A stretch of 60,694 nt of DNA, counting the filler, from Nemertoderma westbladi (taxonomy: Eukaryota > Animalia > Xenacoelomorpha), in assembly GCA_032718475.1 (NCBI GenBank). It is 2 parts of 2 records of this genome, joined end to end, with 100 filler letters (N's around TTAATTAATTAA, not from the genome) between each part and the next. Parts side by side here need not be neighbours in the genome. Positions count along the whole stretch, not along the records: positions 1 to 29,298 come from JAUCBJ010003324.1; 1 more part is not named here. One strand, written 5' to 3'. Of the stretch, positions 1 through 59,700 are shown piece after piece. A model generated the notes under the pieces. The model saw only the letters and a program-made list of their open reading frames with translations, was not told the origin of the DNA and ran no database searches. Each line of letters opens with the position of its first letter. Within the stretch, counting starts at the first letter, position 1. A program made the position numbers and the translations under genes.

Positions 1-400
1 CATAGAATAACTAGAGTAACTAAACTAAACATAAATTAGGATGAACAGGTGGTCACGGGTTCGATCCCTACTCGCGACCATTATAAATCCAACACAAAAT
101 AAGTTAAACCAGGGTTCGAATCCTAATCATGAAAATATAAAAAGTAAACATAGAATAACTAGAGTAACTAAACTAAACATAAAATAGGAAAAACAGAAGG
201 TCATGGGCTCAATCCCTATTCGTATCCAGTTTTATGGAAAATAAACAGGAGGTCATAGGTTCAATCCCTACTCGCGACCATTATAAATCCAACACAAAAT
301 AAGTTAAACCAGGGTTCGAGTCCTACTAATGCAATTATAAAAAGTAGGTAACACGGATGCTCACGGATTCAAACCCTACTCAGGGAAAAATAAAAACCAA
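1..400 (+). repeat. Degenerate repeat array with six B-box-like / tRNA T-arm motifs
   Basis: GGTTCGATCCC (58-68), GGTTCGAATCC (113-123), GGCTCAATCCC (206-216), GGTTCAATCCC (258-268), GGTTCGAGTCC (313-323), GATTCAAACCC (366-376). Block 1-34 recurs at 149-182 and block ~44-124 recurs at ~244-324. Confidence 0.8.
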
Positions 401-448
401 CACAAAATAAATAATATAGTAAACTTTCATGTATACCATAGTAAATAG

Positions 449-964
449 CTAATTTAATAATAAAGTTTGTAAAATAGATAATGATTCAGGGAATTCACCG
501 GCTGGACACATGGAAACGATTTTATTACTATGAAATACACTGAAATATGCACGTCCTATATATATTCTAATCGCGCAAAATAATTCGGGGGTATAGCTAA
601 TAAATATTGCTTTATTATTAATTGTATGATGTCCACATTTTTTCATTAATAATTTAAAATTAACACTTGGAAAAATAATAGTTCGTGTTTCGGTATTAAG
701 TTTCAAATTTTGTAATTGCATCCCGATAGTTTGTTTTAAATAAAGCAATTCACTAGCTAAATTATTGCACAGGCCTACAATTGTTACTGCGCCGCTGGGA
801 AATAGCATTATAGTTGAATCGTCACCTTTGTAGATAAACATGTTTGGTTTTAAGCAACTTTGACCTGTAATTTGCTGTGAAATTTTATCTAGTTCAAATT
901 TGGCAATGTTTTTTCCGGTAAACTGTTTATTGGTTATTTCTATTTTGTTGTCCAATTTCTTATT
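449..964 (-). CDS. TBP: Divergent TATA-box-binding-protein (TBP)-like protein; probably the 3' exon of a spliced gene
   Basis: Two TBP-fold repeats. EITN...MLFPSGAVTIVG resembles LQN...LIFSSGKMVCTG. LKLN...SYTPELFCAIRIY...FSVFHSNKIV resembles FKIQN...SYEPELFPGLIYR...LIFVSGKVV. The ORF track starts at a TTG; the frame is open up to a splice acceptor TTATTTTTCTAG (AG at 966-965). Confidence 0.75.
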   Translation of the reverse strand, partial: NKKLDNKIEITNKQFTGKNIAKFELDKISQQITGQSCLKPNMFIYKGDDSTIMLFPSGAVTIVGLCNNLASELLYLKQTIGMQLQNLKLNTETRTIIFPSVNFKLLMKKCGHHTINNKAIFISYTPELFCAIRIYIGRAYFSVFHSNKIVSMCPAGEFPESLSILQTLLLN

Positions 965-978
965 CTAGAAAAATAAAA

Positions 979-3900
979 TTAAATCCTAGTAGGGGGGATT
1001 ACTATTCGTTTCGCCGGTCTAACAAGCTTAGTGCTATAGTGTCCGTATGGTTTGCTGCTATATTTACTACTCCAATATGATTTCGTATCCCAGAGCGTTA
1101 GTGCCTTCTTATAGACATGACCAGTAAAAATTTGATGCTTTCTAGAAGTGAAGGTAGAGTTATAGCGGAAGAGCATTGCCTCGTTTTCAAAACAGTCTGC
1201 ATAATCCTCGTGTGTTAGTTGCTTAGCGACAACCGATCTAGATACTCCTTTGGCGGTTTTCTTGATTGGGGCATCATAGGATTGAAAACTGTAGACCTTT
1301 GGTTTAAGGAAAACCCACTGTTTATACTGCAAACCGCAGCTCTCATCTTTTATGAAGCCGAGAGCCGCTTTGTGTTTAATGGTATAGAGTGGATGTGTTG
1401 TACTGTAGTTGGAAGTATCTAGGAAACCACCCTCAAACATTGCCCGTAGAAAGGTTAGCTGTGGTGTATTAGTTACGCTTAGCATTAGAGAATCCGTGTC
1501 ACCGGCTAGACAACGAATCTGGCAATCCAGTTTTTGTTCTAGAGGCTTCAGTTTGTTGTAAAATAGGTCGTACATCTGTAGCTTAGATAGATCTAGTATA
1601 GTGCAACCGATGAACACGCCCTGATTTAGGCAAACAGCCTCTTTAGTGAAAGTATGACCACTCAAGTTGGGGGTAAATACAACAAACGATTCGTGATTGG
1701 GCTTGGCTAAGAGCAAATCGCATTGTTCGTCGCTATTGCATAACCTGAAAGAAACGCGGTCTCTAACCTTTTGGAGGCATTTCCCATACAAGGCATTGTT
1801 CATCAACTTATAAAATAGGACCTCGAATGGGTTATTTGCCGACTGTCTTTTATTTGTATTAAAACTAATGTAGTCCTTGAAAATATATTTTTGCGAGAAA
1901 GAGTAGACCCTATGTACTTGTGTAAGTTTAAGACCGAGCTTCAAATAGAGTTGAAGTAGCTTAATATGGATACCGTATTCAACCTTATTAAACTGATGTA
2001 GTAGTAGCTTAGTACAGGTATCGTTGTATGGTCTACAGGTAGCCGTATCGGTGAGATTGTAATGCTCCCAAAGATCTTCCATGTATTCGCTAAGAAAGGA
2101 TTTAGGGACTGACATCTTCTCCGCTCCTAGAGGCAGATCGGCGGTCAAATCATGAATTTCTTTCGGATAATGTAGATCAACTATGCAATAATAACCAGTA
2201 TCCCCACTCGCGTCTACTGTAGCTAGGTCTATGGGGGTAGTTACGAGTTTAATATTAGCGTATGGAAGTTTCTGGCTCAGGGCGCAGCCGTAAAGGTTAT
2301 TCGCATCGATGGGAATTAGATATTTCTCGGGGAGACTGGAGTCATAGTCGGGTTTATCGGGGATATTTGCGTCTACGGAATGTGTATTCAAGAAAACTAG
2401 ACCTCCCCTAATATTTGCTTCAAAGTCCGAGTAGATGGAAGCGTCTGATAGTAATTGAATTTCTGATTGCGTGAATTTCAGCGCTGCGTCGTAAGTTAAT
2501 CCAGGGGCAGTGAAGTACATTACGGGCTCGAGTCCATAATTAGTAAGACAGAGGGATCGGAACTGCTCGAAAGTATCAGCCAATAGGGTAACATCTAGAA
2601 CCAAATAGCCAATCATATAGTCAAAGATTGTTAGACAGTTTAATTCATCCCAAGTAGTAAGCGCGCGCTGATAGTTTTCTGCGCTACATTGTTCCAATTT
2701 GAGATCATTATAGAAGCTTTCTAATGGGGGGAGTGTAGTTTCGTATAGGTTTGAAATATTTTGAATGTAGGAATATGGGAATACGCCCTTGTTTTTTATT
2801 GTGTTATCGCTAATGTTGGGGTAGAGTTGGGTCATTTGAGCTAGTGTATGGGGTATGGCTGTTGCTAGGTTACTGTTATTTTTAGTGAGATAGCTACTAA
2901 GATTATCTAGGCTGGCAGTCATAAACTGATAGGAATCTAGAAAATTAATGGAGATACTTTCTTTAGCGTTGGCTGTTGGTGTACTCGGATCGATTGGGAA
3001 GCTAACTTTAAGGTGAATATAAGTTTCGGTGTTTTTTGGTATTACGGTCATTTTCCAGTGTGTTCTAGAACTATCGGTCATTCCTTCTTTTAGTAGTAAA
3101 TGCATATCGAATTTCCTCAGGTTATGAAATATAATATAAAAATTATTCCGTTTTAGGGAAAGTTTCCTGTTGCAGCTGACGCAAGCAGCCCCCCGATACT
3201 CCCCGCTATAATGATCGTGATCGCGGACTTTGGTGCTGAGATTGTCATTGAGGTTTAAATTATGAGAATCGGGGGTTAAATTACAGTTGCAGACGTAGCA
3301 TTGTGTAGCGTTATTAAAGTCAGTTTGTTGGCTAGTAGTGAGTTGCATGGGGGCGTGCGTGTTTGTACTAGAAATGGACCAATCGTATAACTCCCTACAA
3401 TGACTTTCCATAGCGGTTAGAAAGTCGCGCATTACGTGGTTACTGCCATCGTCGCGGAAAATTTGAACATCTGTTTTAGGAGGGTTAATTAATTTTTGAT
3501 TTGGTACTGTATAAAAGGCTGCCGCGCTAGCTATATGTTTCTGTGGGAGTTTAATATTGTTTGTAGGTTCTAGAATAGTTTCAATGTCGGCGTATATACA
3601 GAAAGGCGGGGATAGAGTCTTATCGTACCTATCAAATTTAACCAAGAGATTTTCGGGCATATACTCGAGTTGGCGTTTACCCGTATAGCAACGCTCTCGA
3701 TGTTCTTCCAATGATTTGTCAGTGTAAAAGCCTCTGAGACAGCGTTCGCAGTGCGTCTTGTTACCGTTAGAATCTTTTGAATTTATTAATCTATCTATGT
3801 TAGTAATAGCTACGTAGTGGGCAGGGTTTTTGGTTGTGGCTTCGATAAATAATAAGTTTAGTACAGTTTTACCGGAACAGTGCGCGCTATCTGGTTGACT

Positions 3901-5031
3901 TAGAATGGAGAGTTCTTCCGTATTACTCCAATAAAGAAGGTTTATGCAGTATATAGGGTTGGCTTTCAGAAACTGGGGAATACCAGTTACTCTGTCCACC
4001 GGAAAACTTAAATTCGAAAAATCAAACATGTTTAGGAAAGGAGTAAACGTTGAAATTCTACTAATATTATTTTGTTTTCTATCAATTTTCTTATAATTTG
4101 CGGCGGCCAATACTGCATATTTAAAGCATTCCCCCAGCGGGCAGTCTACGCTTACGGTACATTGTTTATTTAATAATAATTTAGATTTATTGAAGCCTTG
4201 ACCCTTTAAATAGGGGTTGCGTTGGGAACGCGCAATCTCAATAGTTATTCGCTCGATGGCTATTATGCGCCAACCCGAGCCGAGACAGAGAAACACGCTT
4301 AACAGTTGATCGATACGATTGACGGCGCTAGAAAACCAGTTATTAAAGTCGCTATTATTCAGAATTTGATTATTGTTACCGCTAGATTTAAAACAGAAGG
4401 ATTCAATTTGAAAACCCTCGCTGGTTTCACGCTCCATTACGATGTTGATTGTAAGCCAGACTCTTAAAAAAGTTCCCATGGCACTACGTAAATGGCTACT
4501 AACGTGTTCTTGAATGTGTGGAAAATTTTCGTTTAAAGTTAATTCTGCGTCGAGTCTTGTTTCTGCGAGGTCGTTGTTATAGGTAAACAGTCGTCCGTGT
4601 GCGCTTCCGTTGGAGGGTGGTTGAAATGGATTGTTTGGGGAAATAGAATCTCGCGAAGTTGAAGGTTCGTTATTGGAGCCGCCGCCGCCGACTTGTTCTG
4701 GAGTAGAGTTGATGGGGGATGAGTGGGAGGTAGTCGGAGTTTTGCGTTTCCGCGAAAAAAGTCGAGTGTAGCATTCATGCCCAGAAAAGGATGATAGGGT
4801 GAGCGAATCCCCGCAGCGGCAATCGGCTGGCTCGTTTACGTAACTAAATCCTGTTCCCCCCTGAGGACACGAAGCAAGATGGCCAACCAGCGTCTTCTTT
4901 TCCGAAGACCAAGTCGGACAGCAGTCGCATCGATATTGCACGAAATGAGTTTTAATATGGCGAGATAAATTATCACTCCGCGTCTCTTTGTTGCAGATGG
5001 GGCAGCTGACTTTATTGGTAGACATAGGCAT
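979..5031 (-). CDS. pPolB: Protein-primed family B DNA polymerase (Polinton/adintovirus type), 1350 aa, with N-terminal zinc fingers and an inserted EndoVII/HNH-like domain
   Basis: ExoI YADIET, ExoII FHNLRKFD, KGVFPY, ExoIII YLVLDV, motif A DANNLYG, motif B KLMNNALYGK, motif C GDTDS. Also a GSGW motif, C2H2 finger CPIC..HIKTH, CERC..HRERC finger, and CYVC..RDHDHYSGEYRGAACVSCN (EndoVII-like, ~3165-3302). Uninterrupted ORF. Confidence 0.95.
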   Translation of the reverse strand: MPMSTNKVSCPICNKETRSDNLSRHIKTHFVQYRCDCCPTWSSEKKTLVGHLASCPQGGTGFSYVNEPADCRCGDSLTLSSFSGHECYTRLFSRKRKTPTTSHSSPINSTPEQVGGGGSNNEPSTSRDSISPNNPFQPPSNGSAHGRLFTYNNDLAETRLDAELTLNENFPHIQEHVSSHLRSAMGTFLRVWLTINIVMERETSEGFQIESFCFKSSGNNNQILNNSDFNNWFSSAVNRIDQLLSVFLCLGSGWRIIAIERITIEIARSQRNPYLKGQGFNKSKLLLNKQCTVSVDCPLGECFKYAVLAAANYKKIDRKQNNISRISTFTPFLNMFDFSNLSFPVDRVTGIPQFLKANPIYCINLLYWSNTEELSILSQPDSAHCSGKTVLNLLFIEATTKNPAHYVAITNIDRLINSKDSNGNKTHCERCLRGFYTDKSLEEHRERCYTGKRQLEYMPENLLVKFDRYDKTLSPPFCIYADIETILEPTNNIKLPQKHIASAAAFYTVPNQKLINPPKTDVQIFRDDGSNHVMRDFLTAMESHCRELYDWSISSTNTHAPMQLTTSQQTDFNNATQCYVCNCNLTPDSHNLNLNDNLSTKVRDHDHYSGEYRGAACVSCNRKLSLKRNNFYIIFHNLRKFDMHLLLKEGMTDSSRTHWKMTVIPKNTETYIHLKVSFPIDPSTPTANAKESISINFLDSYQFMTASLDNLSSYLTKNNSNLATAIPHTLAQMTQLYPNISDNTIKNKGVFPYSYIQNISNLYETTLPPLESFYNDLKLEQCSAENYQRALTTWDELNCLTIFDYMIGYLVLDVTLLADTFEQFRSLCLTNYGLEPVMYFTAPGLTYDAALKFTQSEIQLLSDASIYSDFEANIRGGLVFLNTHSVDANIPDKPDYDSSLPEKYLIPIDANNLYGCALSQKLPYANIKLVTTPIDLATVDASGDTGYYCIVDLHYPKEIHDLTADLPLGAEKMSVPKSFLSEYMEDLWEHYNLTDTATCRPYNDTCTKLLLHQFNKVEYGIHIKLLQLYLKLGLKLTQVHRVYSFSQKYIFKDYISFNTNKRQSANNPFEVLFYKLMNNALYGKCLQKVRDRVSFRLCNSDEQCDLLLAKPNHESFVVFTPNLSGHTFTKEAVCLNQGVFIGCTILDLSKLQMYDLFYNKLKPLEQKLDCQIRCLAGDTDSLMLSVTNTPQLTFLRAMFEGGFLDTSNYSTTHPLYTIKHKAALGFIKDESCGLQYKQWVFLKPKVYSFQSYDAPIKKTAKGVSRSVVAKQLTHEDYADCFENEAMLFRYNSTFTSRKHQIFTGHVYKKALTLWDTKSYWSSKYSSKPYGHYSTKLVRPAKRIVIPPTRI

Positions 5032-6065
5032 CTTGAATCTAGAAAAATAAGTTGATTATTCGTAAAAAAAAAATAAAAAATACTGTATACTTGCTAAAAA
5101 TAAAGTAAAACAGTAGGTATTAATCGGTTACTAGGCAACAATACTGTGTTTATATAGTTAGGCCTATTGCTATATTGTAGCAATCAGTCAGTGAAACATA
5201 AAGCAGGCAGTCGGCAGTATCTAGTGTGGAAGTGTTAGTGTACCAGCGGTCAGATAGTGGCGATAGCCAAGACACAAAAGCGATGCCAGTTATTATTCGT
5301 GGAAAGAGGGTCTATAAACAGCAGTCAGTCAGTGCAGTAGTGCTAGTGATATAGTCTGCTACAAGTCAGACGTACCGGTAGCGTTAACCAATAGAAATCA
5401 ACGATAGGCTTAGCTAATCGCTGTGTGAGATCTCAGTTAGTCAGTAGGATATATAGTGAAAACTGCAGTATTCATTGTTGTTCAGTAGGGTCTATATCGT
5501 TACTACAGTGGCACTAGGCTAACTCGAATGATGCGGTACCGATAGTCAGGTAGACAGGCAGATAGACAGATGTAGGCCTATTGATCGAATGCTTCGATCA
5601 CGGTTTAGGCTATCGGTATCACCGCAGTCTGATAGTAATTAATAATGAGCCTACTGCAATACTGTTGTACCGGTAGACATTAAATGTAAATTGTTTGCTA
5701 CCGGCATCGAAAGTATAGCTAGATAGTGGAAGGCAGATTTTACTTACGGTGTTAGTAAATATTCACGGAAAGATGAAGTTCGCGAAGAAGTTGGTTGACG
5801 TGGACGACGAGAGAGTTTATTAATCGATAGAGCGGAATGGTAGGTATCGGAAGAATATTACGCGGCGGATACGCGGAAAGTTTGTTGTCGACGATGAGCG
5901 TTAACGCGGCGAAATGACAATAATACAACTCTACAAGTGGGTTGTTGACTGATGATAACAAATAAATATTCTTAATAAATAATATTAAATTCGAAAACAA
6001 AATAATGGTAAATGATGTTAATTGTAAATTGCAATTGAATTAATGACCTAATATATTGATGGGGA

Positions 6066-6190
6066 CTTATTAAATAGCAATTCGGTTAGTAGGGGAGGCC
6101 CTTGTCTCTTAAATGAGCCAATCAGAGCGCAGCAGCAGAAATGAAGCCCGCTGATTGGCTGTTCGCGCAAAAGCGGTTACCAAGGCAACT
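6066..6190 (-). promoter_or_regulatory. Putative promoter for the PolB transcription unit (CCAAT x2, E2F-like, RFX X-box, TATA-like)
   Basis: GCCAATCAG (CCAAT at 6118-6122) and inverted CTGATTGGC (6151-6159), TTCGCGC (6162-6168), GTTACCAAGGCAAC (6176-6189) and minus-strand TATTTAA (~6075-6069). A minus-strand GTAAGT donor at 5747 and an acceptor just upstream of the PolB ATG suggest a noncoding leader exon. Confidence 0.45.
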
Positions 6191-6764
6191 TCTCCTGTTG
6201 ATTCTATATTAGAAACCCCTGTAGGCATCTTGACTAATTATGTTGAGTTGGCTGTATAACAGAAGCAGGTCTGGTGCAAAGGAAAGGGATTACTAGAGAG
6301 GAATGCGTGATTAAAGGCGCTTCATTGTTATGATACGGGCTGCCTGGATATAGGAAAGGGGCAAAGCGACGCCGGCTATGCCGAGAACAATGGAGGGCCG
6401 CTTGAGCATTAGCCTTGGGCGATATACGGATTTGCTGTAGTCAAGGCCGCCTGGCGCCATTGAATAATGAAGACAAAGGGGCTGCTAACAGACGGGACCG
6501 CTCATTTATATTTGCCTTGGGGGTATACGTATAGAAGATTCACTGCATGTTGTATCTAGTTAATGAATAATGAGGACAGAGGAGGGGCCCCCCCCGCCGA
6601 TGAACGCAGTTGATAGTTGCCAGTAGGGAGCCGTATACCATAGCCATTATAAAGTTAAAAATAGATATTATGTCATAGTGATCTCGTTGGTAATATAAAA
6701 ACTAATTAATCTAAAAATAGAAATCAATGTATAAAGTAAAAGTAATATATACAATTAATTAATT

Positions 6765-7550
6765 TAAAATAAAGTACAAATGAATAAATACGAATAAAAT
6801 AAAATGCAAATAATTAATTAAAATTAGGTACAAATAAATAGTTAAATTGAAAATAACAAAGTTAGAGAAGATGTTAATTTTCAGATAATACGCCCTCTAG
6901 CGGCAGACTATGGAACTGCAGGCGGTTGGATATATGTAAGAGTAATTAGTAATCAGAGCTGTCACGGGGTGGGGGGGGGGCAGGGGCGCTTGGATACAAC
7001 TATCATTAATATGCTCTTGCTTGGTTAAAGCTAATTGAGGGGTCAAAGGTCAACGAAAAAGCTGTCTGGATATAGATAAGAGTAATTAGTTACCAGTAAG
7101 GGAGCTGTATACCCATAAAGTACAAATGAATAATTAATATAAAATAAAGTACAAATGAATAAATAAAGTAAAATAAAATACAAATAATTAATTAAAATTA
7201 GGTACAAATAAATAGTTAAATTGAAAATAACAAAGTTAGAGAAGATGTTAATTTTCAGATAATACGCCCTCTAGCGGCAGACTATGGAACTGCAGGCGGT
7301 TGGATATATGTAAGAGTAATTAGTAATCAGAGCTGTCACGGGGTGGGGGGCAGGGGCGCTTGGATACAACTATCATTAATATGCTGTTGCTTGGTTAAAG
7401 CTAATTGAGGGGTCAAAGGTCAACGAAAAAGCTGTCTGGATATAGATAAGAGTAATTAGTTACCAGTAAGGGAGCTGTATACCCATAAAGTACAAATGAA
7501 TAATTAATATAAAATAAAGTACAAATGAATAAATAAAGTAAAATAAAGTA
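6765..7550. repeat. Tandem duplication (~370-374 bp unit, 2 copies) in the Polinton subterminal region
   Basis: CGCCCTCTAGCGGCAG at 6891 and 7265, GGTCAAAGGTCA at 7041 and 7411. The copies are near-identical apart from poly-G length. Confidence 0.95.
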
Positions 7551-7623
7551 CAATTAATTAAAATTAAATATAAATAAATAAGTATTAATGAATAAAAGAG
7601 CTGCGGTGTCACTTATGACACCC

Positions 7624-7929
7624 TCTTGCTCCTCTCGGCGACAGTTAGACATCACTGATGACCCATTGTGTGTCAGGGCGCTAATCAGTCTGATTAATTA
7701 GGATAATCAATTAAACCCTAATTAGGAGTCATATGACACCTGTTAGGGTTTAATTGTACTAATTAATTGATGACACCTGTCAATTAGGGTCTAATTAGCC
7801 TAATTGGGAGGTGTCAGCCAGACAGTCTGGCGCCAATGACACCCAATGACACCCATAGGGTGATAATTGGGTGTCATATGACACCCAATGGGTGTCAGTG
7901 AGGTCTAACTGTCGCCGAGAGGACCAAGA
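7624..7929. repeat. Terminal fold-back (inverted arms ~7624-7675 / ~7879-7929) with multiple TGACACC motifs
   Basis: TCTTGCTCCTCTCGGCGACAGTTAGACATCACTGA pairs with TCAGTGAGGTCTAACTGTCGCCGAGAGGACCAAGA (2 mismatches). Perfect palindrome ATTGGGTGTCATATGACACCCAAT at 7866-7889. Confidence 0.9.
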
Positions 7930-9299
7930 CCCTACTACTAACAGATGCACTTTGAGACCCCGACTGAACCCTGTACTTTGGCACTGACATACCTACCGGT
8001 AAGGTTTATACTTAACGTGCTTGATAAATAAATAAAATACAATTAACTCTTTATCTTTATTATTGGATTTTCAAGCTTCTACAGTACTTCAACTATTAAT
8101 ATGTTTTGATATTTCTGTAACTTTCCTGCTTCTCTTGAATCGAACAACGAATTAACTAAAATTATCAATTGATAACAATTTAATTTTCTCTTAATCAATA
8201 TCAACAGAAGTATCAATTGATAAAATATCAATTGATATCAATATCAATGGACAAGCCTGTAAATTGGATCAGCTGTTATTTGCTTCTACTTTCCACGGCT
8301 TTAACTATGATCTATCAAAAATCCCCCTATCTGAAAAATTGATGCGTAATTAATATAAGCGCAGTTATTAACTAATTATACTGTACACCATGTTCAGGAA
8401 TATAATGTCGTTATTCAGGTACCTCCCCCCACCCCCCTCCCCCCAAAATTTTTCTACAAATCGTAATGAGATTGCATGAAATTTGATACAGAGATAGTTT
8501 CACCACCCTCATCCTTCCTGGGTGAGCCAGAATTTTTATTTTCGCTTTCATTCTTTAGCTACAAGCGTTTGAAAAAGGTGTCTCTGATGATATTGAACTT
8601 TTTTCACCGCAGTTATTCTTCAACTTTTAGCGATTTGTTGATATTGACGGAAAACTGGCCATGCAAGGTGTGTTTTACAGTAATAGTGTGAAACATATCC
8701 TTATCTTGTAGCCCATATTTCGAAACCTATGAAAACAATTTCTTTTCCTAAAATAATTGCTAATATTTTTTCTGAAGTGAAATATAAAAAATTAAATTTT
8801 TCGCCCATAATTTAAGTTTTTCAGAAAAATTTCCAGAAAAAACTTAATATTTTAAAAATTTAAATTTATTTTTAATGTTCTCCGTGGCGAACTAATTCCA
8901 AATATTTGGTTTTTAGAGGTCTACAGCATCGTAACTAATTGAATTTATAAAAGGAAAATTTAGGAGAAAAGAAGGAAAAAAATGAGAAAAGCACGTAGGA
9001 TTAAATCTCGTTTCGAAAATAATAATGCCAAGTTTCTTGACAAATCTTTTGTGAGATACTAACACTGTAACATCACCAATAACCCCACAATTATTTATCC
9101 CTTCCTTCAACAACCAAGCAAAGTATAAGTTATGTAGCTATTATTATAGGCCAACGATCATTCGATTTTGAGGAGTCATCAGACCGTACAAAGAGAAGAC
9201 AAGTTCAAGAATAATGTACCAATGTGGCACGTGCCAGTCCAACAAATCAGTTGGACATTTGAAACCTATTTGAATTTAATCAGCATCATCATAAAATCC

Positions 9300-11675: not shown

Positions 11676-14435
11676 TTAAACTGCCTGAGTATCCTTCCAA
11701 TATCTCGAATTCAGTCTGACCGCTGAACGAATATCTGATTGGGTTATTGGAGTCTGAACCTGAGTACTGGCCTCCCTCATCTCATTACAAATACCAGTTT
11801 CTGTATCCAAACAGCTATTGGATATTTCTGCATCGAAAGCACCATCTAATAATTCACTATCTAACGCTCTATCAGTTATCTCCCTCACTGGTCCCAGAAT
11901 TTCAGCACAATTTGGAGGTTCTTGAACTTCATGGGATGTATTCCCAGCATTATTAGCGTTAGAACTCGAGAACTTAGGGACAATAGAAGCTGCCCATTTA
12001 TTAGAAGGCGATGTATATTTACTACTGGCGCGTTTCGGACTGTTCTGCATTTGCGAAATCGGGAGTTTAATCAAATAAGAAGGTTTGTTTGGACTTTTTA
12101 TCGGTTTAATTTTAGGAGCCTGAGGAGACATTTTGCGATGGGCGTTAGGAAACCCCGGTATTTGCTCCTGTATCCATTTAATAATGGGTGTATCTTCCTG
12201 TATCTGTTTCAGTATATTTTGTCTGGGAGGCGCCATCAAATCGTCGACCCCCAGTGGTTCCGTCTCCCTACCCTCATCCTCTGCGCGCAGCCCACCCACC
12301 ATGGCAGACTCCATCTGCTGCAGACTGGCGGCCAGACGCTGAGACACGGGATTGGGCCAATCCTGTTTCCGTTTCCGCTGGCCGCCTATCATTGGCGGAG
12401 AGCTGAAGTCCCCTTTCCCAGGGGAATCAGCCATGCCTCTTTGCCAGAGTGAGTTCTGGCATCTATTTATTGCATCATTGAGAAAGGTGCCCGATGCTTC
12501 TCCCATGGTTCCGGGCGATTCTCCCATGGTTCTCGGCGTTTCTCCCATGATTCCGGGCGCTTCTCCCCTGGTTCCGGACGTTTCGTCCACGGTCCCGGGC
12601 GCTTCTCCCCTGGTTCCGGGCGTTTCGCCCAAGGTCCCGGGCGATTCAGGCGTCAGCCGTGTGGAGGAGTTACCCTTGGGACGGAATGCAACTATCCTGA
12701 AATTTCCGCGGCCCAATTGGCGACCGGGGATTAGTCGGTTGCTAAGCAACCGTGTAGTGACTCCCGCAGGAGCTTCGGTAGATGACGTCACGCCCGACAC
12801 ATCGGACTGTATCGTTACGAAGTCGCCCTGGGGTAGCGGCGGCCCGGTGTCGCATGCGAGATAATTCGATGGATTAAATTCCCGCATTAATTGATTCCCT
12901 TCTGAGCCGATAGGAGGCGGTTCGGGGTAATTATCCCCCTCCATTCGGGGGGAATGACACTCCCCCATATATGGGTAAGGGGGGCAATTACCCCCCTCAT
13001 ACAGGGGGCCCTGCCTACAAGGGACTCTGTGCATCGGCCCCCTTGTACGAACAGCCCCCCGGCCCCTGATAGAAGCGAAACGCTGGTAAACATTACGGGA
13101 GGGGGGCGAGATCAGGGGGGAATCGTGGGACGCGGGGCTGCTGAAGGGGGGTTCATCGGATTGGGGGGTCCGCGGGTTGATTTCCCCCTCCTCTATGACG
13201 CACTCGGTGAGGCTCCCGATGGACTGGAGTCCGGCGCCGAGACGCATAGAGGGGGAAGGGATCCCCCCTACCGATGGTGCGTGGGGGCCGTAGATAGGGG
13301 AGCCATCGGGGGTTGAGGGCGCATCGCCTACACTCCCCCCATCTGGTCCCACAGATAAACTCATACACTGTCTGTCCCACCCTCTGCCTGCCTTCCCTAC
13401 CTTCACCATCCCCTGCTCGCCCTTCCCACCCCTCCACCCTCCCCTCTTCCCGCCTCCACCCCCTCCCTTAGCCCCCGGTATGTACCGAACCGATATCTTC
13501 CTATCCAACTTGGTCTGCCTCCGATGTTGAGGGTAGACCTCCACCATCTGGTAGATCTTATGGGCGTTCCTCCCCTTCTTAATGCCGTCGCTCGCGAGAC
13601 AAATCATATCGGGAAGCGAGTTCAACGCGCACCGGAAGTTCGCCTTCCAACTGCCCGGGTTCTCCGCGTCCTTCCCGGGGATATACTTCCCGGTGTGCAA
13701 CGCCCACTCCCGGTAAAGTTTCCCGTCACCCAGACGCCATTGGGTACCCGAGCGGTGTTTCCAAGGCAGCGTAAATATCCGTTTGTCCCGATCGATCCAG
13801 TATAAATCCTCTATTTCGCCGGAATCAATCCACATCTCGAGCCACGGTCGCAGTCGCAGTCGACGCGAGTACGAGACTTCGTCATCTCCGCTCGCCTCGC
13901 CACTAACACTCCCCCCTTCGGGTACAACGCATCCCTCTGTATCCTCCGGACATCGTCGTTCGGTGTAACGATGGTCTGACTGGTAATATTCCCGAGGAGT
14001 CATCTCCTCGATTCGTGGGTCCACCGCATCCCCGCGTACCGATAACTCGTGGCAACCCGCCATCGGTAAATTCACTCCTTCGAAATTAGTTTCACTTTCC
14101 ATTCCTATCATGTTAACCGCGGTAGGCGGAGCTGTTGTGTTGATATCGTCAAAGTCGGAGGTGTCAAAGACGTTGACGTTCAGCTGAAACGGATCAAAAT
14201 CTTCTTGGAAGGGGGCCAAATGAGATGCGGATGAGAACATATTGGTAGGCCTACCCGGCGGACCAAAACCCACATTCGCTGACGACGGAATTTGAGAGTG
14301 ATCCACAGATCCATAATCATCTAAAGGTTCAGTTTTTATTTCGCGAGTGTGGCGAACAATTCTGCAATTAACAACCGGTCCGTAAGGACCAACGTTGACG
14401 TGCGATTCTGGAGCAATGTTGTCGGTGTAATCCAT
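11676..14435 (-). CDS. IRF: Interferon regulatory factor (IRF1/IRF2-group) transcription factor, 919 aa, single coding exon
   Basis: Tryptophan-pentad DNA-binding domain at ~13866-13540: RLRPWLE..W..IFTLPWKH..W..WALHTGKY..PGSWKANFRCALNSLPD..KIYQM. It closely matches the IRF1/2 pattern (RMRPWLE, PWKH, WAIHTG, WKANFRCAMNSLPD). ATG-to-TAA ORF with no interruption. Confidence 0.92.
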   Translation of the reverse strand: MDYTDNIAPESHVNVGPYGPVVNCRIVRHTREIKTEPLDDYGSVDHSQIPSSANVGFGPPGRPTNMFSSASHLAPFQEDFDPFQLNVNVFDTSDFDDINTTAPPTAVNMIGMESETNFEGVNLPMAGCHELSVRGDAVDPRIEEMTPREYYQSDHRYTERRCPEDTEGCVVPEGGSVSGEASGDDEVSYSRRLRLRPWLEMWIDSGEIEDLYWIDRDKRIFTLPWKHRSGTQWRLGDGKLYREWALHTGKYIPGKDAENPGSWKANFRCALNSLPDMICLASDGIKKGRNAHKIYQMVEVYPQHRRQTKLDRKISVRYIPGAKGGGGGGKRGGWRGGKGEQGMVKVGKAGRGWDRQCMSLSVGPDGGSVGDAPSTPDGSPIYGPHAPSVGGIPSPSMRLGAGLQSIGSLTECVIEEGEINPRTPQSDEPPFSSPASHDSPLISPPSRNVYQRFASIRGRGAVRTRGPMHRVPCRQGPLYEGGNCPPYPYMGECHSPRMEGDNYPEPPPIGSEGNQLMREFNPSNYLACDTGPPLPQGDFVTIQSDVSGVTSSTEAPAGVTTRLLSNRLIPGRQLGRGNFRIVAFRPKGNSSTRLTPESPGTLGETPGTRGEAPGTVDETSGTRGEAPGIMGETPRTMGESPGTMGEASGTFLNDAINRCQNSLWQRGMADSPGKGDFSSPPMIGGQRKRKQDWPNPVSQRLAASLQQMESAMVGGLRAEDEGRETEPLGVDDLMAPPRQNILKQIQEDTPIIKWIQEQIPGFPNAHRKMSPQAPKIKPIKSPNKPSYLIKLPISQMQNSPKRASSKYTSPSNKWAASIVPKFSSSNANNAGNTSHEVQEPPNCAEILGPVREITDRALDSELLDGAFDAEISNSCLDTETGICNEMREASTQVQTPITQSDIRSAVRLNSRYWKDTQAV
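12490..12650 (-). repeat. 21-bp coding tandem repeat inside the IRF ORF (heptad G-E-x-P-G-T-x)
   Basis: ESPGTLGETPGTRGEAPGTVDETSGTRGEAPGIMGETPRTMGESPGTMGEASGT in the translation. Confidence 0.85.
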
Positions 14436-15874
14436 ATTAATCTATCCACATTGCTATCGTCATAGGATATCGCCTGCGTTCTGGCGTTAGATCGTTAGGC
14501 CTAGGACATTTAGAATTACAATGTTTTTATCAATTACGAATATTAATTACTGAATTAACATATCGATAATCATGACAGCATGACCGAAATCGCTACCGTG
14601 ACCGTACCGCCCGCGTTGCCGTACGCTACATAAATGCAACATACCGATACTGGTACCGGTACTGCAGTACTGTGCTAGAAGTGGAAGTTATTGAGTAACT
14701 TCAGAACTATCAGTTTACCGTACCTACCGGTTTTGTATTCCTGATAATAAAATTAGGCCTAGCCTACCTACCTCAGTACCTGTATTGTATTACTTTTGTG
14801 GTAGATTAAAACATAGCACAGACAACTACTAAGTACAGTGTTGTAGTTAGCTAATAACGTAACGAAACGATGTAATTGTGGGGCGAGCCACGAAATTAGC
14901 AAAGCCTTAGCATAGGGATAGGGGTACCATTAACGATTTTTTTTGCTGTCGTCGGCGTAGTTATCGCGCTGCAGTTATTCTTTAAGCTTTATGGTTGGTT
15001 GATAACACTACCTAAGATGTATGCATTCGAAAGTGACATATTGTATTGACATTAGCACAGTGGCGTCGCGTAGGTGTGGCGTGGGGGGGGGGGGGGGGGG
15101 GGTGATTGAAAAATAGACGTAAATGAAGACAAGGTGATTAATTAATTACAAGATTATTTAAAATCACTTTATATTTATATTTATTTTTTATTAGCCAAAA
15201 ATAATTGTTAATATAAGAAGTATTCAACGGATAGTGCAAAGCGCATAGGTCTACTAACAAGAGGTAAACAACCTACAGCCATAGTATGATATCTTTGCTT
15301 ATGATTTGGTATAAACCGTAATGGGCGTCCAAAATATGATAACGGGGAAGTTTTATAAAAACACGGATCACTCGAATTTTGGTAATTGCTGGATGCAACA
15401 GTGCTAAATAAGTATATGCAAAGTAGGAATCCTAATCTATAGTAGTAGGACCTAACTCTCTCAATAGCTAATGTAGCTCACCAGTAAATAAAGTAGTAGG
15501 CCTATATTATAAACAATGACGGACATTGCAGTGAACTATATATCACTCAGGTGGGATTCTCATAACTCTGTAAAGTAAAGTCTACATTAGAAACAATAAA
15601 ACTTCTTGAGAACTAGGCTAGCTCGGATGATATCAATTGTACTGTATGCTCTAAGTGTAAGATTATATACCCTACAGCTGTTGTACTGTACACAATATCT
15701 GCAATTAGTTACATAAAGGGATATGTATGTCATCAATATTCCTAATGATATGATTAATTAAGAGTTGAGAACGTCGATAAGATGACGTACTGTAGGCCTA
15801 ATATAACAAAATTGCGTACATTATTGTATCAAGGTAGATTATTCAGTGTTAAAAACCATTTATATAATGTGTTC

Positions 15875-17406
15875 GTGAGTTCGGGATTGAGCCAAGGCGT
15901 GAGTTCGGAACCGAGCCAAGGCGAGAGTTCGGGATCGAGCCAAGGTGTGAGTTCGGGATCGAGCTAAAGCTTGATTTCGAAACCGATCCATGGTGTGAGT
16001 TAGGGATCGAGCCAAGACGTGAGTTCGGGACCAAGCCAAGGCGAGAGTTCGGGATCGAGTCAAGGTGTGAATTCGGAACCGAGCCAAGGCGTGAGTTCGG
16101 GATCGAGCAAAGGCGTGAATTCGGGACCGAGCCAAGGCGAGAGTTCGGGATTGAGCCAAGGCGTGAGTTCGGAACCGAGCCAAGGCGTGAGTTCGGGATC
16201 GAGCCAAGGCGTGAGTTCGGGACCGAGTCAAGGCGAGAGTTAAGGATTGAGCCAAGGTGTGAGTTCGGGGTCGAGCCAAAGCTTGAATACGAAACCGAGC
16301 CAAAGTGTGAGTTCGGGATCAAGCCCAGGTGTAAAGTCGGGATCGAGCCAAGGCTTGAGTTCGAAACCGAGCCAAGGTGGGAGTTCTGGATCGAGCCAAG
16401 GTGTGAGTAAGGGACCCACCCAAGGCTTGAGTTCGGGACTGAGCCAAGGCGTGAGTTCGAAACCGAACCAAAGTGTGAGTTCGGGACAGAGCCAAGGTGT
16501 GAGTTCGGGATCGAGCCAAGGCTTGAGTTCGAAACCGAGCCAAGGTATGAGTTCGGGATCGAGCCAAAGGTGTGAGTTCGGGACCGATCCAAGGCTTGAG
16601 TTCGAAACCGAGCCAAAGTGTGAGTTCGGGACCGAGGCGAGGCGTAAGTTCGGGACCGAGCCGAAGCGTGAGTTCGAAACCGATCCATGGTGTGAGTTCG
16701 GGGTCGAGCCAAGGCGTAAGTTCGAAACAGATCCAAGGTGTGAGTTCGGGACCAAGCCAAGGCTTGAGTTCGGGACCGAGCCAAGGCTTGAGTTCGAAAC
16801 AGAGCCCTTGAGTTCGGGACCGAGCCAAGGTGTGAGTTCGGGATCGAACCAAGGCGTGAGTTCGAAACCGAGCCAAGGTGTGAGAACGGGACCCATCCAA
16901 GGTAGGAGTTCGGGACCGAGCCAAGGCGTAAGTTCGAAACCGGGCCAAAGTGTGAGTTCGGAACCGAGCCAAGTCTTGAGTTCGGGACCGATCCAAGGTG
17001 TGAGTTCGGGATCGAGCCAATGCGTGAGTTCGAAATCGAGCCAAGGCGTGGGTTCGAAATCGAGCCAAGGTGTGAGTTCGGGATCGAGTCAAGGCATGAG
17101 TTCAAAACCGAGCTAAGGTGTGAGTTCGAAATCGAGCCAAGGCGTGGGTTCGAAATCGAGCCAAGGTGTGAGTTCGGGATCGAGTCAAGGCATGAGTTCA
17201 AAACCGAGCTAAGGTGTGAGTTCGGGATCGAGCCAAGAAGGCGTGAGTTCGAAACCGATCCAAGGTGTGAGTCGGGGCCGAGCCAAGGCTTGAGTTCGAA
17301 ACCGAGCCAAGGTGTGAGTTCGGGACCGAGCCAAGGCTTGAGTTTGGAATCGAGCCAAGGCGTAAGTTCGGAATCGAGCAAAGGCTTGAGGTCGAAACCG
17401 AGCCAA
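15875..17406. repeat. 24-bp minisatellite (consensus ~GAGTTCGGGATCGAGCCAAGGCGT), ~63 copies
   Basis: Direct tandem periodicity; it generates the 8-aa-repeat ORFs seen in several frames. Confidence 0.97.
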
Positions 17407-33182: not shown

Positions 33183-33627
33183 CTGCAACAAACAAATTAA
33201 AATAAATTATTATTTTTACAGTGTAATATGAATGTGAATATGAATGTTAATGATATAGTATAACTGGATGAATTGGTGTTCGGATTGGCATCTTTATCAA
33301 TAAATATGTATGTATGATAATATGGTGGCACGGCGCCACCATGGAAAAGGCATGTTTGCACTTGGCTTGTATTGCGATGAGATGTCAAAGAGGATAGAAC
33401 TATGATTATTATATTATAAATAGTAAAACAGGCCCAAATAAAGTAAAAGTATATTTTCTTCGGCCGTTAGCCCAGGGATATCGCACAAAGTCTGATACCG
33501 GTATGCAAATACCGGTATATATAAACGTATATATACATATTAGTGGTTAACACATGCTGGGCTTGTGCTCAGTATGCAGTGCATCCTTGTTACTTACTCG
33601 GTGTATGTGCCTGGGTTAGGTACTTAC

Positions 33628-34120
33628 TCGGTGTATGTGCCTGGGTTAGTTGCACAAGTAATTTCTCCTTTATCATCCGTAATGATAATCTCTGGACTGG
33701 CGTATTTCTCGTACAATTGCGATATTCCGCACGAAAATGACAACAATACCAGCATAAATATAAGCAGAAACTTTCCAATATCGATGAGCATACATCCGAG
33801 AGATATCTGCAATGGACCTAAGGAGGGACTCATCTGGAATAAGTATATGATACGAAAGAAGGAAAATACATTGGCAACTGCGAAAACGCATTCCGAACAA
33901 AGAAGAGGGTCATTGTTGGGCCATTCAAATCTAGGAGCACAAACTGGACCGTATCTTCCATCAGAGTTCATATGTTTGATAAGAATAATTGCCATAAATC
34001 GAGTTACAAAAGCCAGCAAGTACATAGATAGCATTATAAAGTCCAACCAGTTCCACCATTGTCGACAGTAGGCTTTGAGGCCACTATCCCATACCTGCTT
34101 GCATTCTCCCCATATCATAC
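33628..34120 (-). CDS. TRPC: TRPC-family channel exon (S2-S5)
   Basis: GMIWGECKQVWDSGLKAY..WWNWLDFIM..DPLLCSECVFAVANVFSFFR..LGPLQISLGCMLIDIGKF. Acceptor ttcag| at 34121 and donor |gtaagt at 33627. Confidence 0.93.
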
Positions 34121-50479: not shown

Positions 50480-51972
50480 ACTCCAAAGAAGCATTAAAAG
50501 CATGTCCAATAATAAAGCGAGTGGATTAGATGAAATCCCAGCGGAGGTATGGAAAACCGGAGTGCTAAATAGACCATTATTGAATGTTTGCAACCGGATG
50601 TTAAAAGGGGAAAAGCCACCACCAATTTGGACTAAAGGTCAACTAAAGCCTCTCCCCAAGAAAGGAGACCTCGGCATACCAACAAACTATCGTGGGATCT
50701 GTCTGCTTGTGGTAGCTGCCAAAATATACAATAAAATGATTCTATATAGGATTAGGCCTCACATAGAGAAACTACTGCGTAAGAGCCAAAACGGATTTCG
50801 ACCAAGTAGATCAACAATAGCTCAGATACTTGCACTACGGAGACTGATTGAAGGAATTAAGTCAAAGAATCTCCCCGCAGTCATGACTTTTGTGGACTTC
50901 AAGAAGGCATTCGACTCCATCCATAGAGGTAAAATGCTTGAAATCCTAAGAGCTTATGGAATACCAGAAGTAATTGTTGCTGGCATTGGATTGTTATATT
51001 GTGACACAGAAGCGCAGGTACTCTCACCAGATGGTGAAACTGAGTTTTTCTCAATCCTGGCTGGCGTACTGCAAGGTGACACATTAGCACCATTACTATT
51101 TGTAATTGTGCTGGATTACGCAATGAGGACGGCCACAAAGGGTGAAGATCTGGGATTCACACTTCAAGAACGCAGAAGTAGTAGATATCCGGCAACTACA
51201 GTCACAGACACCGACTTTGCGGATGACATCGCCCTGCTCTCTAATACGCTAGCAGATGCACAGCTTCTACTAAATAAAGTGGAGAGGGCTGCTAAGGAGG
51301 TTGGATTGCATATAAATGCTACCAAGACCGAATTCATGACCTTTAATGTTGATGGAAACTTGACAACCATTGATAATAATCAACTAAGGAAGGTCGATGA
51401 CTTCCAGTACCTTGGATCATGGATAGAGAGTAGCAAAAAGGACATAGAAGTTAGGAAAGCAAAGGCTTGGGTAGCTCTATCAAAAATGGATACCATCTGG
51501 AAATCAGATCTCTCCAGGCACCTGAAGACTAAGTTCTTTCGAGCCACAGTGGAAAGTGTATTTTTATACGGGGGTGAGACCTGGACACTGACTAAATCAC
51601 TTGAACAACGAATTGATGGTTGCTACACAAGACTACTAAGGGCAGCCCTAAACATCAGCTGGAGACAACACATGACAAACGCCGAGCTTTATGGTACAAT
51701 ACCACCTGTATCAACCACCCTCCGTGAACGCAGATTAAGATTCAGTGGGCACTGCTGGCGAAGTAAAGACGAGGTCATACCATATCTACTTCTCTGGCAA
51801 CCAACTCATGGAAAGTGTAGTCGTGGACGACCTGCCATAACATATATAGATCAACTTGAAAGGGATACTGAACTTGGAAGAAACGAAATTGCGACAACTA
51901 TGGAGAATCGGGAAGCCTGGAAGGATCTCATTTCCACTGTCCGAGTTCGCTCGACCAAGTAGTAGTAGTAGT
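50480..51972 (+). mobile_element. 5'-truncated RTE-like non-LTR retrotransposon, apparently recent
   Basis: TSD AATGTG at 50474-50479 and 51973-51978. (AGT)n 3' tail directly after the stop. Inserted antisense within the CR1/L2-like element. Confidence 0.92.
50502..51962 (+). CDS. Reverse transcriptase domain and C-terminus of an RTE-like ORF2 (endonuclease lost by 5' truncation)
   Basis: KASGLDEIP, PLPKKGDL, NYRGICL, QNGFRPSR, FVDFKKAFDSI, GVLQGDTLAP, FADDIAL, FQYLGS, RRLRFSGHC, GRP. 486 codons with no stop. Confidence 0.93.
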   Translation: MSNNKASGLDEIPAEVWKTGVLNRPLLNVCNRMLKGEKPPPIWTKGQLKPLPKKGDLGIPTNYRGICLLVVAAKIYNKMILYRIRPHIEKLLRKSQNGFRPSRSTIAQILALRRLIEGIKSKNLPAVMTFVDFKKAFDSIHRGKMLEILRAYGIPEVIVAGIGLLYCDTEAQVLSPDGETEFFSILAGVLQGDTLAPLLFVIVLDYAMRTATKGEDLGFTLQERRSSRYPATTVTDTDFADDIALLSNTLADAQLLLNKVERAAKEVGLHINATKTEFMTFNVDGNLTTIDNNQLRKVDDFQYLGSWIESSKKDIEVRKAKAWVALSKMDTIWKSDLSRHLKTKFFRATVESVFLYGGETWTLTKSLEQRIDGCYTRLLRAALNISWRQHMTNAELYGTIPPVSTTLRERRLRFSGHCWRSKDEVIPYLLLWQPTHGKCSRGRPAITYIDQLERDTELGRNEIATTMENREAWKDLISTVRVRSTK

Positions 51973-56700: not shown

Positions 56701-59700
56701 TTTATTAGTTAGGATATTTAGGTTTAGCCGGCCATGGTTTTGAATCGCTCAAGTTAGAGAGAGAGTTAGAGAGAGTCGCAACCCGAAGATGTAGCCACGC
56801 GCTAGTGGATACATAATAATATTTGAAATTAAAATTACGTTGATTAGAGCTATATATATATAAAATTAGAAATATTCGGGCGGCAAATATTTTGAATATT
56901 TTGTATTAGATTCAAAGTTATTTTGTGCTATACCGGTATTTAATGCTATATAATAGCTATATAATAATATTTTTGTTTAAATATTGTGCTAGTATTTGCT
57001 ATAACTATATACCCCATTAAATTCACAATATTGCATTGCGAATTTATTCTGACATTTGGACCAACTGATTATTTGACAAATAATTTGACCGTATTTCGGT
57101 TAAATTATAATTATATCTCGAACTTTTGCGAGATATTTTTGCCGGAAGGCAAAACATTATTTAGACTATGAGTGTCTCAGACAAGGAGGCACTAGAGGAC
57201 AGCTATGAGACGGCGGCTGGACCGCCGACTGACGATAGCGTCAATATTACTGTTGACGACAATGCCGACTATGACGACGCAGCGAGCGACGCTGACGTAA
57301 GTGAACAGGAGGACGAGACAGTGACTAGTGAGGAAGAACAACAACCTCAGGTAATAGTATTAGGATCCCCTACCGCTACTGTAAGGAAGGATTGTACAGC
57401 AACCCGACCAGAGGTGAGTGATAAGGAGGGTAGTGTAGCAGAAGCGAGAGCCCGGAGCCCGGTTTCCAGACCTGTGGGTATGGTAAGTGCCGTGGTCCCA
57501 GCGGCTGTAAGGAGTACCCGTAGTTCCCGAAATAATCCTTCAAGTCCACCGAGTGTAAGTCAGGTAAGTGATAGAGAGTTCGACATCGCGATAAAGAAGA
57601 AACTTCGCGCGCATGCCGGACATATAACTCGGACGGCGGACAAGGTAAGGAAGATGTTAGCTGACTCAGCCAACATCGGGAGGGTAGAGTTAGTAGAGAT
57701 TAGAAGAGGATATAACTCAGCGTTATTCAAGCAGACGGAGGAGCTTGCAGTCCTAGCGAAGAAGGCAGTAGAGTCTCAGTCGAGCGACGTAGCAACGAGG
57801 ATTTACGACAGGGTTTTAGCAGCCTTGTTAGAGCACCGCGAGTTATCGGAGCGATTCCGACGAGTTAGGACGGAGAACTGGCTGCTATGGACATCACAAG
57901 CGCAGGCGACTCAAGTGAGTGACGCAGAGCTGAGAGAGTTAGTGGAGCGAGAAGAGATCCAAGACAAGGAGGAGCGCAGGTATCAAAGGGAAGTTACTAG
58001 CTGGCTGATGCAGAATGGAGTGGTGGTACCAGGTCAGGTGCTACCGACGACGGAGAACATTCAACAGAGGACGTTGACTCCACCCGATGATGCATCTAGA
58101 GACAGCGGCGATTCCCAGGTTAGTCACGCGCGAGGTAAGGTAATATGTGCTAGATCCCTTGTTTCGCACAACTCGGCGGAGGAGAGAAGACGCCGACTGG
58201 ACGAACAGCAGGCGGAAGTTTTGCGTGCATCGGAAGCACGGAAGGAAGCCGAGCGGGAACGGGAGCGAACACGTAAGTTAGACGCAAAGTTGCGAGAGTT
58301 GGAAGAGAAAGGTAAGCGCGAGCAAGCGGAACGCGAACGCAAGGAACGCGAACTCCAGCTCGAACGCGAACAGAAGGAACGCGAACTCCAGCTCGAACGC
58401 GAACAGAAGGAACGCGAACTCCAGCTCGAACGCGAACAGAAGGAACGCGAACTCCAGCTCGAACGCGAGCGCAAGGAGCGCGAACTTGAGCGCGAGAGGG
58501 AGCGACGGGCGTTGTATGAAGAGAAGGCGCGTGTGGAAGAAGAGGGCGCAGCGAGACGAGCAAGGGAGGAAGAAGAACGTAAACTGGCGCAGTTGGAAAG
58601 TGCGAGATTAAGTTTAGAGAGCGAAGAACGGACTAGGAAGGCGAACGAAATCGCCGAGAAGGGGATGCGAATGATCGAAGAATGTGGGGCGAGTGTAGGG
58701 ACAGAGTTACGAGAACTGTTCGCACTGCAGAAGGCCGAACAGGAAGCGAGAACTCCGACCATACGCGAGTCGACGACGACCAGAATTCCTATACCCGGTC
58801 CAGCTATTACGAGTACACGGATCGCTAAACCGTTCTCTACATATCGCACGCCAGTTGGTATTAGTGCTTCACCCATCGCGCAGAATCCACGTCATCAGAA
58901 CATCGCACCACTACACACCGAACACGACGACGAAGAGTTTAGAGAAACTCCGACAGGACGAGTACTTGGCGAACCGAACCCGCGGGTTTGGAATACGCGG
59001 ACGGAGCGCCGACCCAGTTCGACGGAGAACTTCCGGGTTAAACCGGAAGAGGGATCATATGAGAGACAGCGGATTACTCAGATAGAGCCGACTATACAAC
59101 AGAACCCTAGCCAGGAATTTATTACGAGGGATGAGTTAAGTGCTAGTTTAGCGCAAGCTATATCGCCGCACATCCAACCTATAACGGACATGCTTAGCAA
59201 CCTACGGTTAAAGGAAGCAGCCCAGGTAAGAAGTAATTCTAATCCTAGCAGGCCTGAGTTAGATAAAGTCCAGCCTAGTCAACGAGTACGCATATCGGAG
59301 GAGACTATACCACATAGACCTCAGGTAAGGACGCCTGTCCCGAATATCCATAACCCCAATTTCGAAAACTCAGCCGAGAAATTTATTGAGGATGCTTGGG
59401 TCAGGGCCTCGGCGCGCAAATCATCGCGAGCGCTAAGGACTGACACCGAGTCAAGCGATGAAGAGGAAGAAATGAGACGTCAGAAGTCCCGAAACTATAA
59501 GGAAAGAAGGACCGACGCGGAGCAGGTAAGTTGGAACCACCGGGAAAGGACCAGACTTAACAACCCTGCGGAACTAAACCATTTGTTAACCCGGAACGAC
59601 GCAACCCTTAGGGACATAGGTAAGTTTGCTGCTAGGCAAGGACTGCCGACGCAACAACCCCAGAAGTTTATGGGCAACCATAAACATTGGAGGACTTTCA

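Follow-up and report, generated by a model that had tools for sequence, protein, structure and literature searches.

A TBP-fold coding frame behind the polymerase gene of a Polinton in Nemertoderma westbladi, with a possible role as the element's own promoter factor

Does a Polinton of Nemertoderma westbladi carry a TBP gene, and what could such a protein do for the element? The original prediction read a ~170-aa ORF with both TBP repeats 14 bp past the stop codon of a protein-primed DNA polymerase B (pPolB) gene, on the same strand. We followed up this reading in the window, that is, the whole 60,694-nt stretch of DNA analysed. The features of the element are as follows:

41-405 (+): six repeat units of ~50 nt that contain a tRNA T-arm/B-box-like word; TATAAA comes after four of them, and sister contigs link the array to the TBP frame
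449-964 (-): TBP-fold coding frame of 171 codons, with the first ATG at codon 42 (M42)
965-976 (-): splice-acceptor-like 12-mer TTATTTTTCTAG; its TAG serves as the in-frame stop that precedes the TBP frame (phase 0)
979-5031 (-): intact protein-primed DNA polymerase B, 1350 aa, pPolB2-like
5039-5050 (-): second, identical copy of this 12-mer, 7 nt ahead of the pPolB ATG
5148-5156 (-): TATA box TATATAAAC upstream of pPolB, containing ATAAAC
5742-5747 (-): GTAAGT donor candidate in the non-coding leader, without an in-frame ATG upstream
6795-7584 (strand not assigned): ~370-bp direct repeats in the subterminal region of the element
7624-7929 (strand not assigned): branched terminal fold-back of ~300 nt with 35-nt arms, z = -20.7
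7932-7939 (-): AGTAGTAG, the likely right terminus of the element, from the depth profile and the end pattern

The frame at 449-964(-) runs from stop to stop through 171 open codons, and 14 nt (965-978) separate it from the pPolB stop on the shared strand, as predicted. The ORF claim thus holds for the openness of the frame but not for an ordinary start, as there is no ATG before codon 42 and the frame opens straight after TTATTTTTCTAG.

The surrounding element is of the Polinton/Maverick (adintovirus) type, with an intact pPolB related to Polinton polymerases. This polymerase shows a weak N-terminal C2H2 finger and endonuclease VII/HNH matches, the HNH-type one below the cut-off. On the right, the element probably closes with AGTAGTAG at 7939, in the pattern of a Polinton-type (AGT-type) end; on the left, it runs off the window through the 41-405 repeat array, directly behind the TBP gene. 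Integrase, packaging ATPase, protease, and capsid genes were all absent from positions 1-8100 of the window, which cuts the element, and no other element genes were found in 5100-7900. Contig depth, which reflects copy number only roughly, is 1843-2122 for TBP contigs, 1542-1975 for pPolB contigs, and 10-13 for flanking contigs in X3, and 1597-2032 for element contigs versus 18-28 for the flank in X1. Across two runs of two studies, the contig with the TBP frame is ~100-fold deeper than the unique flank (beyond 8.7 kb); its depth in X3 matches that of pPolB. The high depth, the right end at 7939, and the intact pPolB together place the TBP gene inside a Polinton-type element, as originally claimed. 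Separately, the fold-back region 7605-7929 is rich in TGACACC words and, in X1, exceeds every other region by far in summed depth; it may be common to many short non-autonomous elements.

The rest of the window holds several unrelated sequences. At 11676-14435(-), 3.7 kb from the element end, one ORF of 919 codons, with no intron in frame, encodes an IRF DNA-binding domain (Pfam E 1.7e-29). A 24-nt satellite with the B-box-like word GGCTCGATCCC on the minus strand occupies 15750-17400, and 33624-34118(-) holds an ion-channel exon of unusual length (Ion_trans; TRP-like by eye). Farther along are a LINE reverse transcriptase (50502-51962(+)) and a DUF1759 gag-like ORF (57168-60692(+)), presumably of Pao/BEL type.

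Single-sequence searches retrieved no relative of the window protein: there were 0 matches among 36 candidates from 5.8 billion proteins and 0 matches in 1.84 billion representatives, and phmmer against the PDB returned no TBP. Similarly, scans of viral contigs with the window pPolB, the TBP, and two TBP alignments as queries gave no confirmed locus. Against profiles, the protein scored 19 bits with Pfam TBP (PF00352; E 0.0012), below the gathering cut-off of 22.9, and matched the archaeal TBP of NCBIfam at E 0.042. The ESM Atlas feature score to TBP clusters was 0.96, with low recognition. Moreover, a profile of 53 relatives, from which the window protein was left out, gave it 48 bits, and shuffled versions reached at most 10.9 bits (1927 of 2000 shuffles reported). 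Collectively, on these sequence scores, the TBP resemblance of the 449-964 frame is greater than chance.

With a 54-row alignment, AF2 predicted two TBP repeats forming a saddle (pLDDT 94, pTM 0.82); on the window protein alone, pLDDT was 31. The TBP model is driven by the alignment of TBP homologues. Among the matches listed by Foldseek against the PDB, ranks 1-44 were all TBP chains, with TMq 0.65-0.78 and 15-20% identity. In a wide structural search, five TBP chains reached Z 13.1-15.6, and the next fold was a rolling-circle Rep at Z 8.0; human TBP matched the model with Z 15.6 and rmsd 2.2 over 159 residues at 18% identity. Viral TBP-like proteins (BFVD) fit the predicted fold less well than cellular TBP. 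Both TBP repeats of the original prediction are therefore recovered by the AF2 model, by Foldseek, in which all listed top rows are TBP, and by the wide structural search. Resting on the alignment of homologues, the predicted fold is a two-repeat TBP saddle of the PF00352 superfamily.

The alignment of the closest pPolBs fetched 85 loci, 80 metagenomic and 5 viral. A TBP-like ORF is present in seven of the 85, and all seven pass the Pfam TBP cut-off; six lie beside an integrase-chromodomain gene, and several occur with an A32-like ATPase. An alignment of these locus-linked TBPs retrieved 63 further proteins without genomic context. In the pPolB tree (FastTree, 60 rows), all seven TBP loci fall inside the clade of the window (support 1.0); this tree omitted 26 of the 85 loci, which have short polymerase matches, and none of the 26 has a TBP match. 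In-clade loci with at least 7.7 kb downstream carry a TBP in 6/6 cases, versus 0/4 for loci outside the clade with at least 6.6 kb, and these counts are not independent because the loci are kin. The linkage to pPolB thus extends across relatives, with TBP loci confined to the pPolB clade of the window, and the TBP gene of the relatives lies 1 to 9 kb from pPolB on either strand. In-clade relatives carry integrase and ATPase, and one (L009) carries a protease-like gene. No TFIIB or polymerase gene was found among the 117 neighbouring ORFs scanned in relatives.

In the TBP tree, the window protein groups with this Polinton-linked family (SH-aLRT 99), apart from 20 archaeal TBPs and one eukaryote-type TBP. 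It is the most derived member, and its end branch of 3.0 is the longest in the family; its position may be a long-branch effect. The family profile, the Pro at the column of the first intercalating Phe, and the tree position, on a long branch, all assign it to the family. Because the TBP loci are confined to one clade and this Pro is invariant in 47/47 family rows, we regard the gene as an old one of the lineage, not as a recent host capture. Collectively, the frame at 449-964(-) is, with high confidence, a real, element-borne, lineage-wide TBP-fold gene.

Other genes were observed around these loci. Four relatives have, in a different frame, an unannotated ORF of ~220-260 codons, the end of which overlaps the TBP frame, at the following positions:

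L010, 7499-8399
L016, 3635-4592
L013, 4818-5739
L009, 8792-9743

This conserved upstream partner ORF is absent in the window. Furthermore, an innexin adjoins pPolB in L041 (2234-3463), a deoxynucleoside kinase and a weak dUTPase occur in L073 (4755-5546 and 12365-12994), an AP-endonuclease-like TIM barrel is present in L084 (10126-10959), and KilA-N genes are present in L036 (6783-7889).

Residues were compared in an alignment of 20 archaeal TBPs, one eukaryote-type TBP, and 47 family rows. Identity is low: at most 25% to any relative, 16% to the sole eukaryote-type TBP aligned, and 15-20% to solved TBPs. The window protein keeps N12, F55, G58, Y124, E127, F129, F144, and K148. Three of the four intercalating Phe are among them (F55, F129, and F144), in agreement with the original prediction; the first is replaced by P40, and Pro occupies this column in the window and in all 47 family rows. 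The predicted replacement of the YNPKRF region and the change of YEPE to YTPE were likewise observed, with the first-repeat stirrup replaced. Of the two repeat-initial Asn residues said to be kept, N12 stands, but the second is probably lost: the Asn of 'KLN' (Asn90) lies on a Gln column, and the conserved Asn column holds T91 in the alignment with cellular TBPs, with Thr there in seven relatives as well. Since the family-only alignment gives a different register around N90/T91, we grade this Thr as likely, not certain. In addition, DNA-facing Val/Leu positions are polar in the window protein (Q14, T61, T93, and S142).

TFIIB contacts the C-terminal stirrup of TBP, with its two Glu, and the N-terminal stirrup and basic helix H2 serve TFIIA, TAFs, NC2, and Mot1. 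In the window protein, the C-terminal stirrup reads Y-T-P-E-L-F and retains one of the two Glu (T125, E127), and the E127 column is Glu in 46/47 family rows. The N-terminal stirrup is shortened, and helix H2 has a single basic residue. Moreover, E125, the PG pair, and G147, retained by nearly all relatives, are missing from the protein; with these losses in the most derived member of the family, it may therefore be weak or decaying.

Upstream words, chosen in L010 and L018, recur before element ORFs. TTAAGC precedes 7/13 ORFs in L010 and 5/8 in L016, and ATAAAC precedes 6/10 in L018, 4/10 in L036, and 4/8 in L058. Both are enriched on the sense strand, and the two words track two TBP sub-groups. 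Out of sample, the words occur 18 times in sense versus 2 times in antisense orientation, including in the in-clade loci L047 and L037, where no TBP was seen. Enriched upstream words of their own are also found in TBP-less L073, L082, and L084, and TBP-bearing L009 has no enriched upstream word. In the window, we discounted GTATAAACAG at 1326 inside pPolB as a chance occurrence, since ATAAAC is present 7 times on that strand. The shared upstream words fit recognition of element promoters by TBP.

We propose, with somewhat better than even probability, that the TBP-fold protein acts as the private core-promoter factor of the element together with host TFIIB and Pol II, probably from a spliced mRNA. 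Based on the model and the alignment, the three Phe, N12, K46, and K148 would still grip and kink the minor groove, and the polar floor (Q14, T61, T91, T93, and S142) together with the lost first Phe would shift the preference to a TATA variant. The C-terminal stirrup, with E127 kept, would bring in host TFIIB and Pol II at promoters of the element, probably those of the virion genes, which in this element lie, with their promoters, outside the window. Loss of the N-terminal stirrup and the basic helix would allow escape from host TBP control, because the surfaces that bind TFIIA, TAFs, NC2, and Mot1 are gone. Against a promoter factor stand a synonymous excess over the whole frame that is not significant (p 0.13), the TBP-less elements with words of their own, and L009 without one.

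A protein that has given up half of the cofactor surface and E125, in a family whose 117 scanned neighbouring ORFs include neither a TFIIB nor a polymerase gene, could also act as a decoy or inhibitor, binding AT-rich DNA or soaking up TFIIB or TBP regulators and dampening host transcription without driving element promoters. However, the TBP sub-clades go with distinct upstream words (TTAAGC versus ATAAAC), as expected of a reader of element promoters, and the family retains the DNA-kinking Phe and the stirrup Glu. We consider a decoy improbable, though the best placed of the alternatives to a promoter factor.

Expression of the frame would depend on the acceptor that it abuts. TTATTTTTCTAG has only two copies in the 60.7-kb window, with both strands searched, and both belong to the strongest of the element's T-rich acceptors. 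An acceptor near the pPolB ATG was found in only 5/37 relatives; therefore, the pPolB-type acceptor is not a family rule. These signals suggest that TBP is likely made from a spliced mRNA, in which an upstream piece joined at the 965 acceptor would supply the start. The leader donors at 5747 and 5375 are strong, but cis-splicing from either was rejected, since it yields no in-frame AUG. Within pPolB, phase-0 donors are weak at codons 7 (score 3.7) and 176 and stronger at codon 1088, the only strong phase-0 donor with an ATG. The ATA at TBP codon 8 has A at -3 and G at +4 and aligns with the start Met of L018 and L036. As to the source of the start, a short exon that brings an AUG, for example the first codons of pPolB, is tentatively suggested; initiation at ATA codon 8 behind a non-coding leader is doubtful; and a host spliced leader ending in AUG is unlikely, as is, to the same degree, a truncated or silent product.

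In flatworms, spliced leaders carry an AUG at their end and are able to initiate translation (PMC9851317); operons whose genes have no intercistronic DNA between them are also known (PMC12582326). The geometry of pPolB and TBP, with phase 0 and a 14-nt gap, fits an SL trans-spliced operon. By analogy, the two genes could form a viral operon resolved by host SL trans-splicing, in which TBP would take its AUG from the leader and virion genes would be switched on via a variant TATA box with host TFIIB; as a complete scenario, this is quite unlikely.

The missing start could also mean that the gene was functional once in the lineage and has since decayed here, with the start codon gone and no full protein made. 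The first ATG only at codon 42, the longest branch in the family, and the non-significant whole-frame excess agree with decay. Sister copies speak against it. Contigs from three studies cover the TBP frame, and no indel or stop is among the listed differences of four runs; run X5 has no cover there, which counts neither way. The 12 listed differences over the whole frame comprise five synonymous and seven non-synonymous ones (p 0.13). In codon sub-ranges picked after inspection of the data, the counts are five synonymous versus four non-synonymous for codons 8-170 (p 0.04) and five synonymous versus two conservative non-synonymous for codons 135-171, the C-terminal part (p 0.012). For the diverged sister, whose similarity ends at the TBP stop codon, 4/11 differences are not listed, and in X4 three of the non-synonymous differences match the depth of a pPolB-deleted derivative. 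Furthermore, N12 and L25, upstream of M42, are kept, and the exact acceptor abuts the frame in phase 0. From these counts, the TBP frame is probably under selection, and a decaying gene has, in our view, a low probability.

The position of the gene raises a role in replication or packaging. Co-expressed with pPolB, the saddle would act as an origin or genome-organising protein by binding element repeats (the 41-405 units or the terminal fold-back). TBP lies 14 nt behind pPolB with the identical acceptor and adjoins the repeat array with its four TATAAA. The GGTTCGANTCC-type word in these units resembles the tRNA T-arm/B-box consensus. As tRNA genes, the units were rejected because ARAGORN found no tRNA in the left repeats and Rfam gave nothing credible in 1-9000; a landing array for a Pol III factor or for TBP is possible. 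Moreover, a natural deletion derivative joins 971 to 4198 in X1 and X4 contigs (two studies), losing ~3.2 kb of pPolB; the first 278 pPolB codons remain, as do the acceptor and the TBP frame. In X4, where the cover gap over the pPolB core was counted only where a contig joins across, this derivative has a depth of 47 versus 20 for the pPolB 3' end. A second joint, 962-1140, was also seen in X4. The rolling-circle Rep as the next fold after the TBPs points in the same direction, but its Z of 8 is far under the TBP rows. In relatives, by contrast, TBP lies 1 to 9 kb from pPolB on either strand, and the stirrup on the TFIIB side is the best-kept motif. A replication role ranks just below decay in our estimate.

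Finally, recent capture of a host TBP/TRF or a processed pseudogene beside the element, to which the fold similarity to eukaryotic TBP is the only pointer, is very improbable and largely refuted by the 16% identity to the eukaryote-type TBP aligned (15-20% to solved TBPs), the Phe-to-Pro change of the family, a depth the same as that of pPolB, and the location inside the right end at 7939, so that the gene is not a recent host pseudogene.

The reading as a private promoter factor can be set beside known systems. Like cellular TBP/TRF (PF00352), the window protein has a two-repeat saddle, three Phe, N12, and a YxPELF stirrup; unlike them, it has Pro for the first Phe, likely Thr for the second Asn, a polar floor, a shortened N-terminal stirrup, and one basic residue on H2, at 15-20% identity. 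Like the TBP-like proteins of Nucleocytoviricota (for example, Heterosigma akashiwo virus 01 and EsV-1-53), it is a divergent core, with top rows at TMq 0.65-0.70. Giant viruses mostly encode their own polymerase or TFIIB, whereas neither was seen in these Polintons, and TM-scores to the viral proteins are lower than to cellular TBP. Herpesvirus TBP-like factors read TATT late promoters (PMC4893493). As with EBV BcRF1, KSHV ORF24, and HCMV UL87, TBP identity is very low and the saddle is kept, and the proposed reading of a variant TATA by a virus using host Pol II is shared (PMC4893493). In contrast, the herpesvirus proteins work in a six-protein viral complex (PMC4893493), and the window shows a bare 171-aa core with no partner seen. 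They are also much larger (BFVD rows of 733-1005 aa, with weak E-values); the window TBP may have a spliced N-terminal extension.

Among related elements, MELD viruses with adintovirus-like PolB bear a 'TBP' gene label in the legend of Fig. 5 of Starrett et al. 2021 (PMC8502044), and, like them, the window has a TBP-like gene in a mid-size pPolB element. In the parts of that article consulted, this is a label only, in a section on non-animal datasets, without analysis of fold, residues, clade, or expression, and the one supplement of it searched for TBP gave no match. The literature on Polintons, adintoviruses, and PLVs that we searched contained no analysis of a Polinton TBP, with bioRxiv supplements and subscription papers outside its reach. 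The original statement that such a gene is not described for Polintons therefore holds for its analysis but not for the bare figure label. The window pPolB resembles the pPolB2 class of Polintons in its inserted endonuclease VII/HNH-like domain, which is below the cut-off (bioRxiv 10.1101/2023.08.22.554363), an assignment by resemblance, not by tree; the term 'TBP' does not occur in the portion of that text consulted.

Particular to this locus is a start-less gene abutting pPolB behind a duplicated acceptor. Start-less genes that abut an acceptor are missed by ATG-based annotation, and this one has no relative by single-sequence search. If the operon reading were true, the private promoter factor would be made only in cells that trans-splice. 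On the structural model, the protein may represent a natural altered-specificity TBP that tolerates the loss of one intercalating Phe. Polintons encode no RNA polymerase, and a minimal stand-alone TBP, present throughout a pPolB clade whose sub-clades have their own upstream words, would offer a one-protein test of how virion genes are timed. Acting as proposed, it would add small integrating elements to the herpesviruses and giant viruses as users of a viral-TBP late switch.
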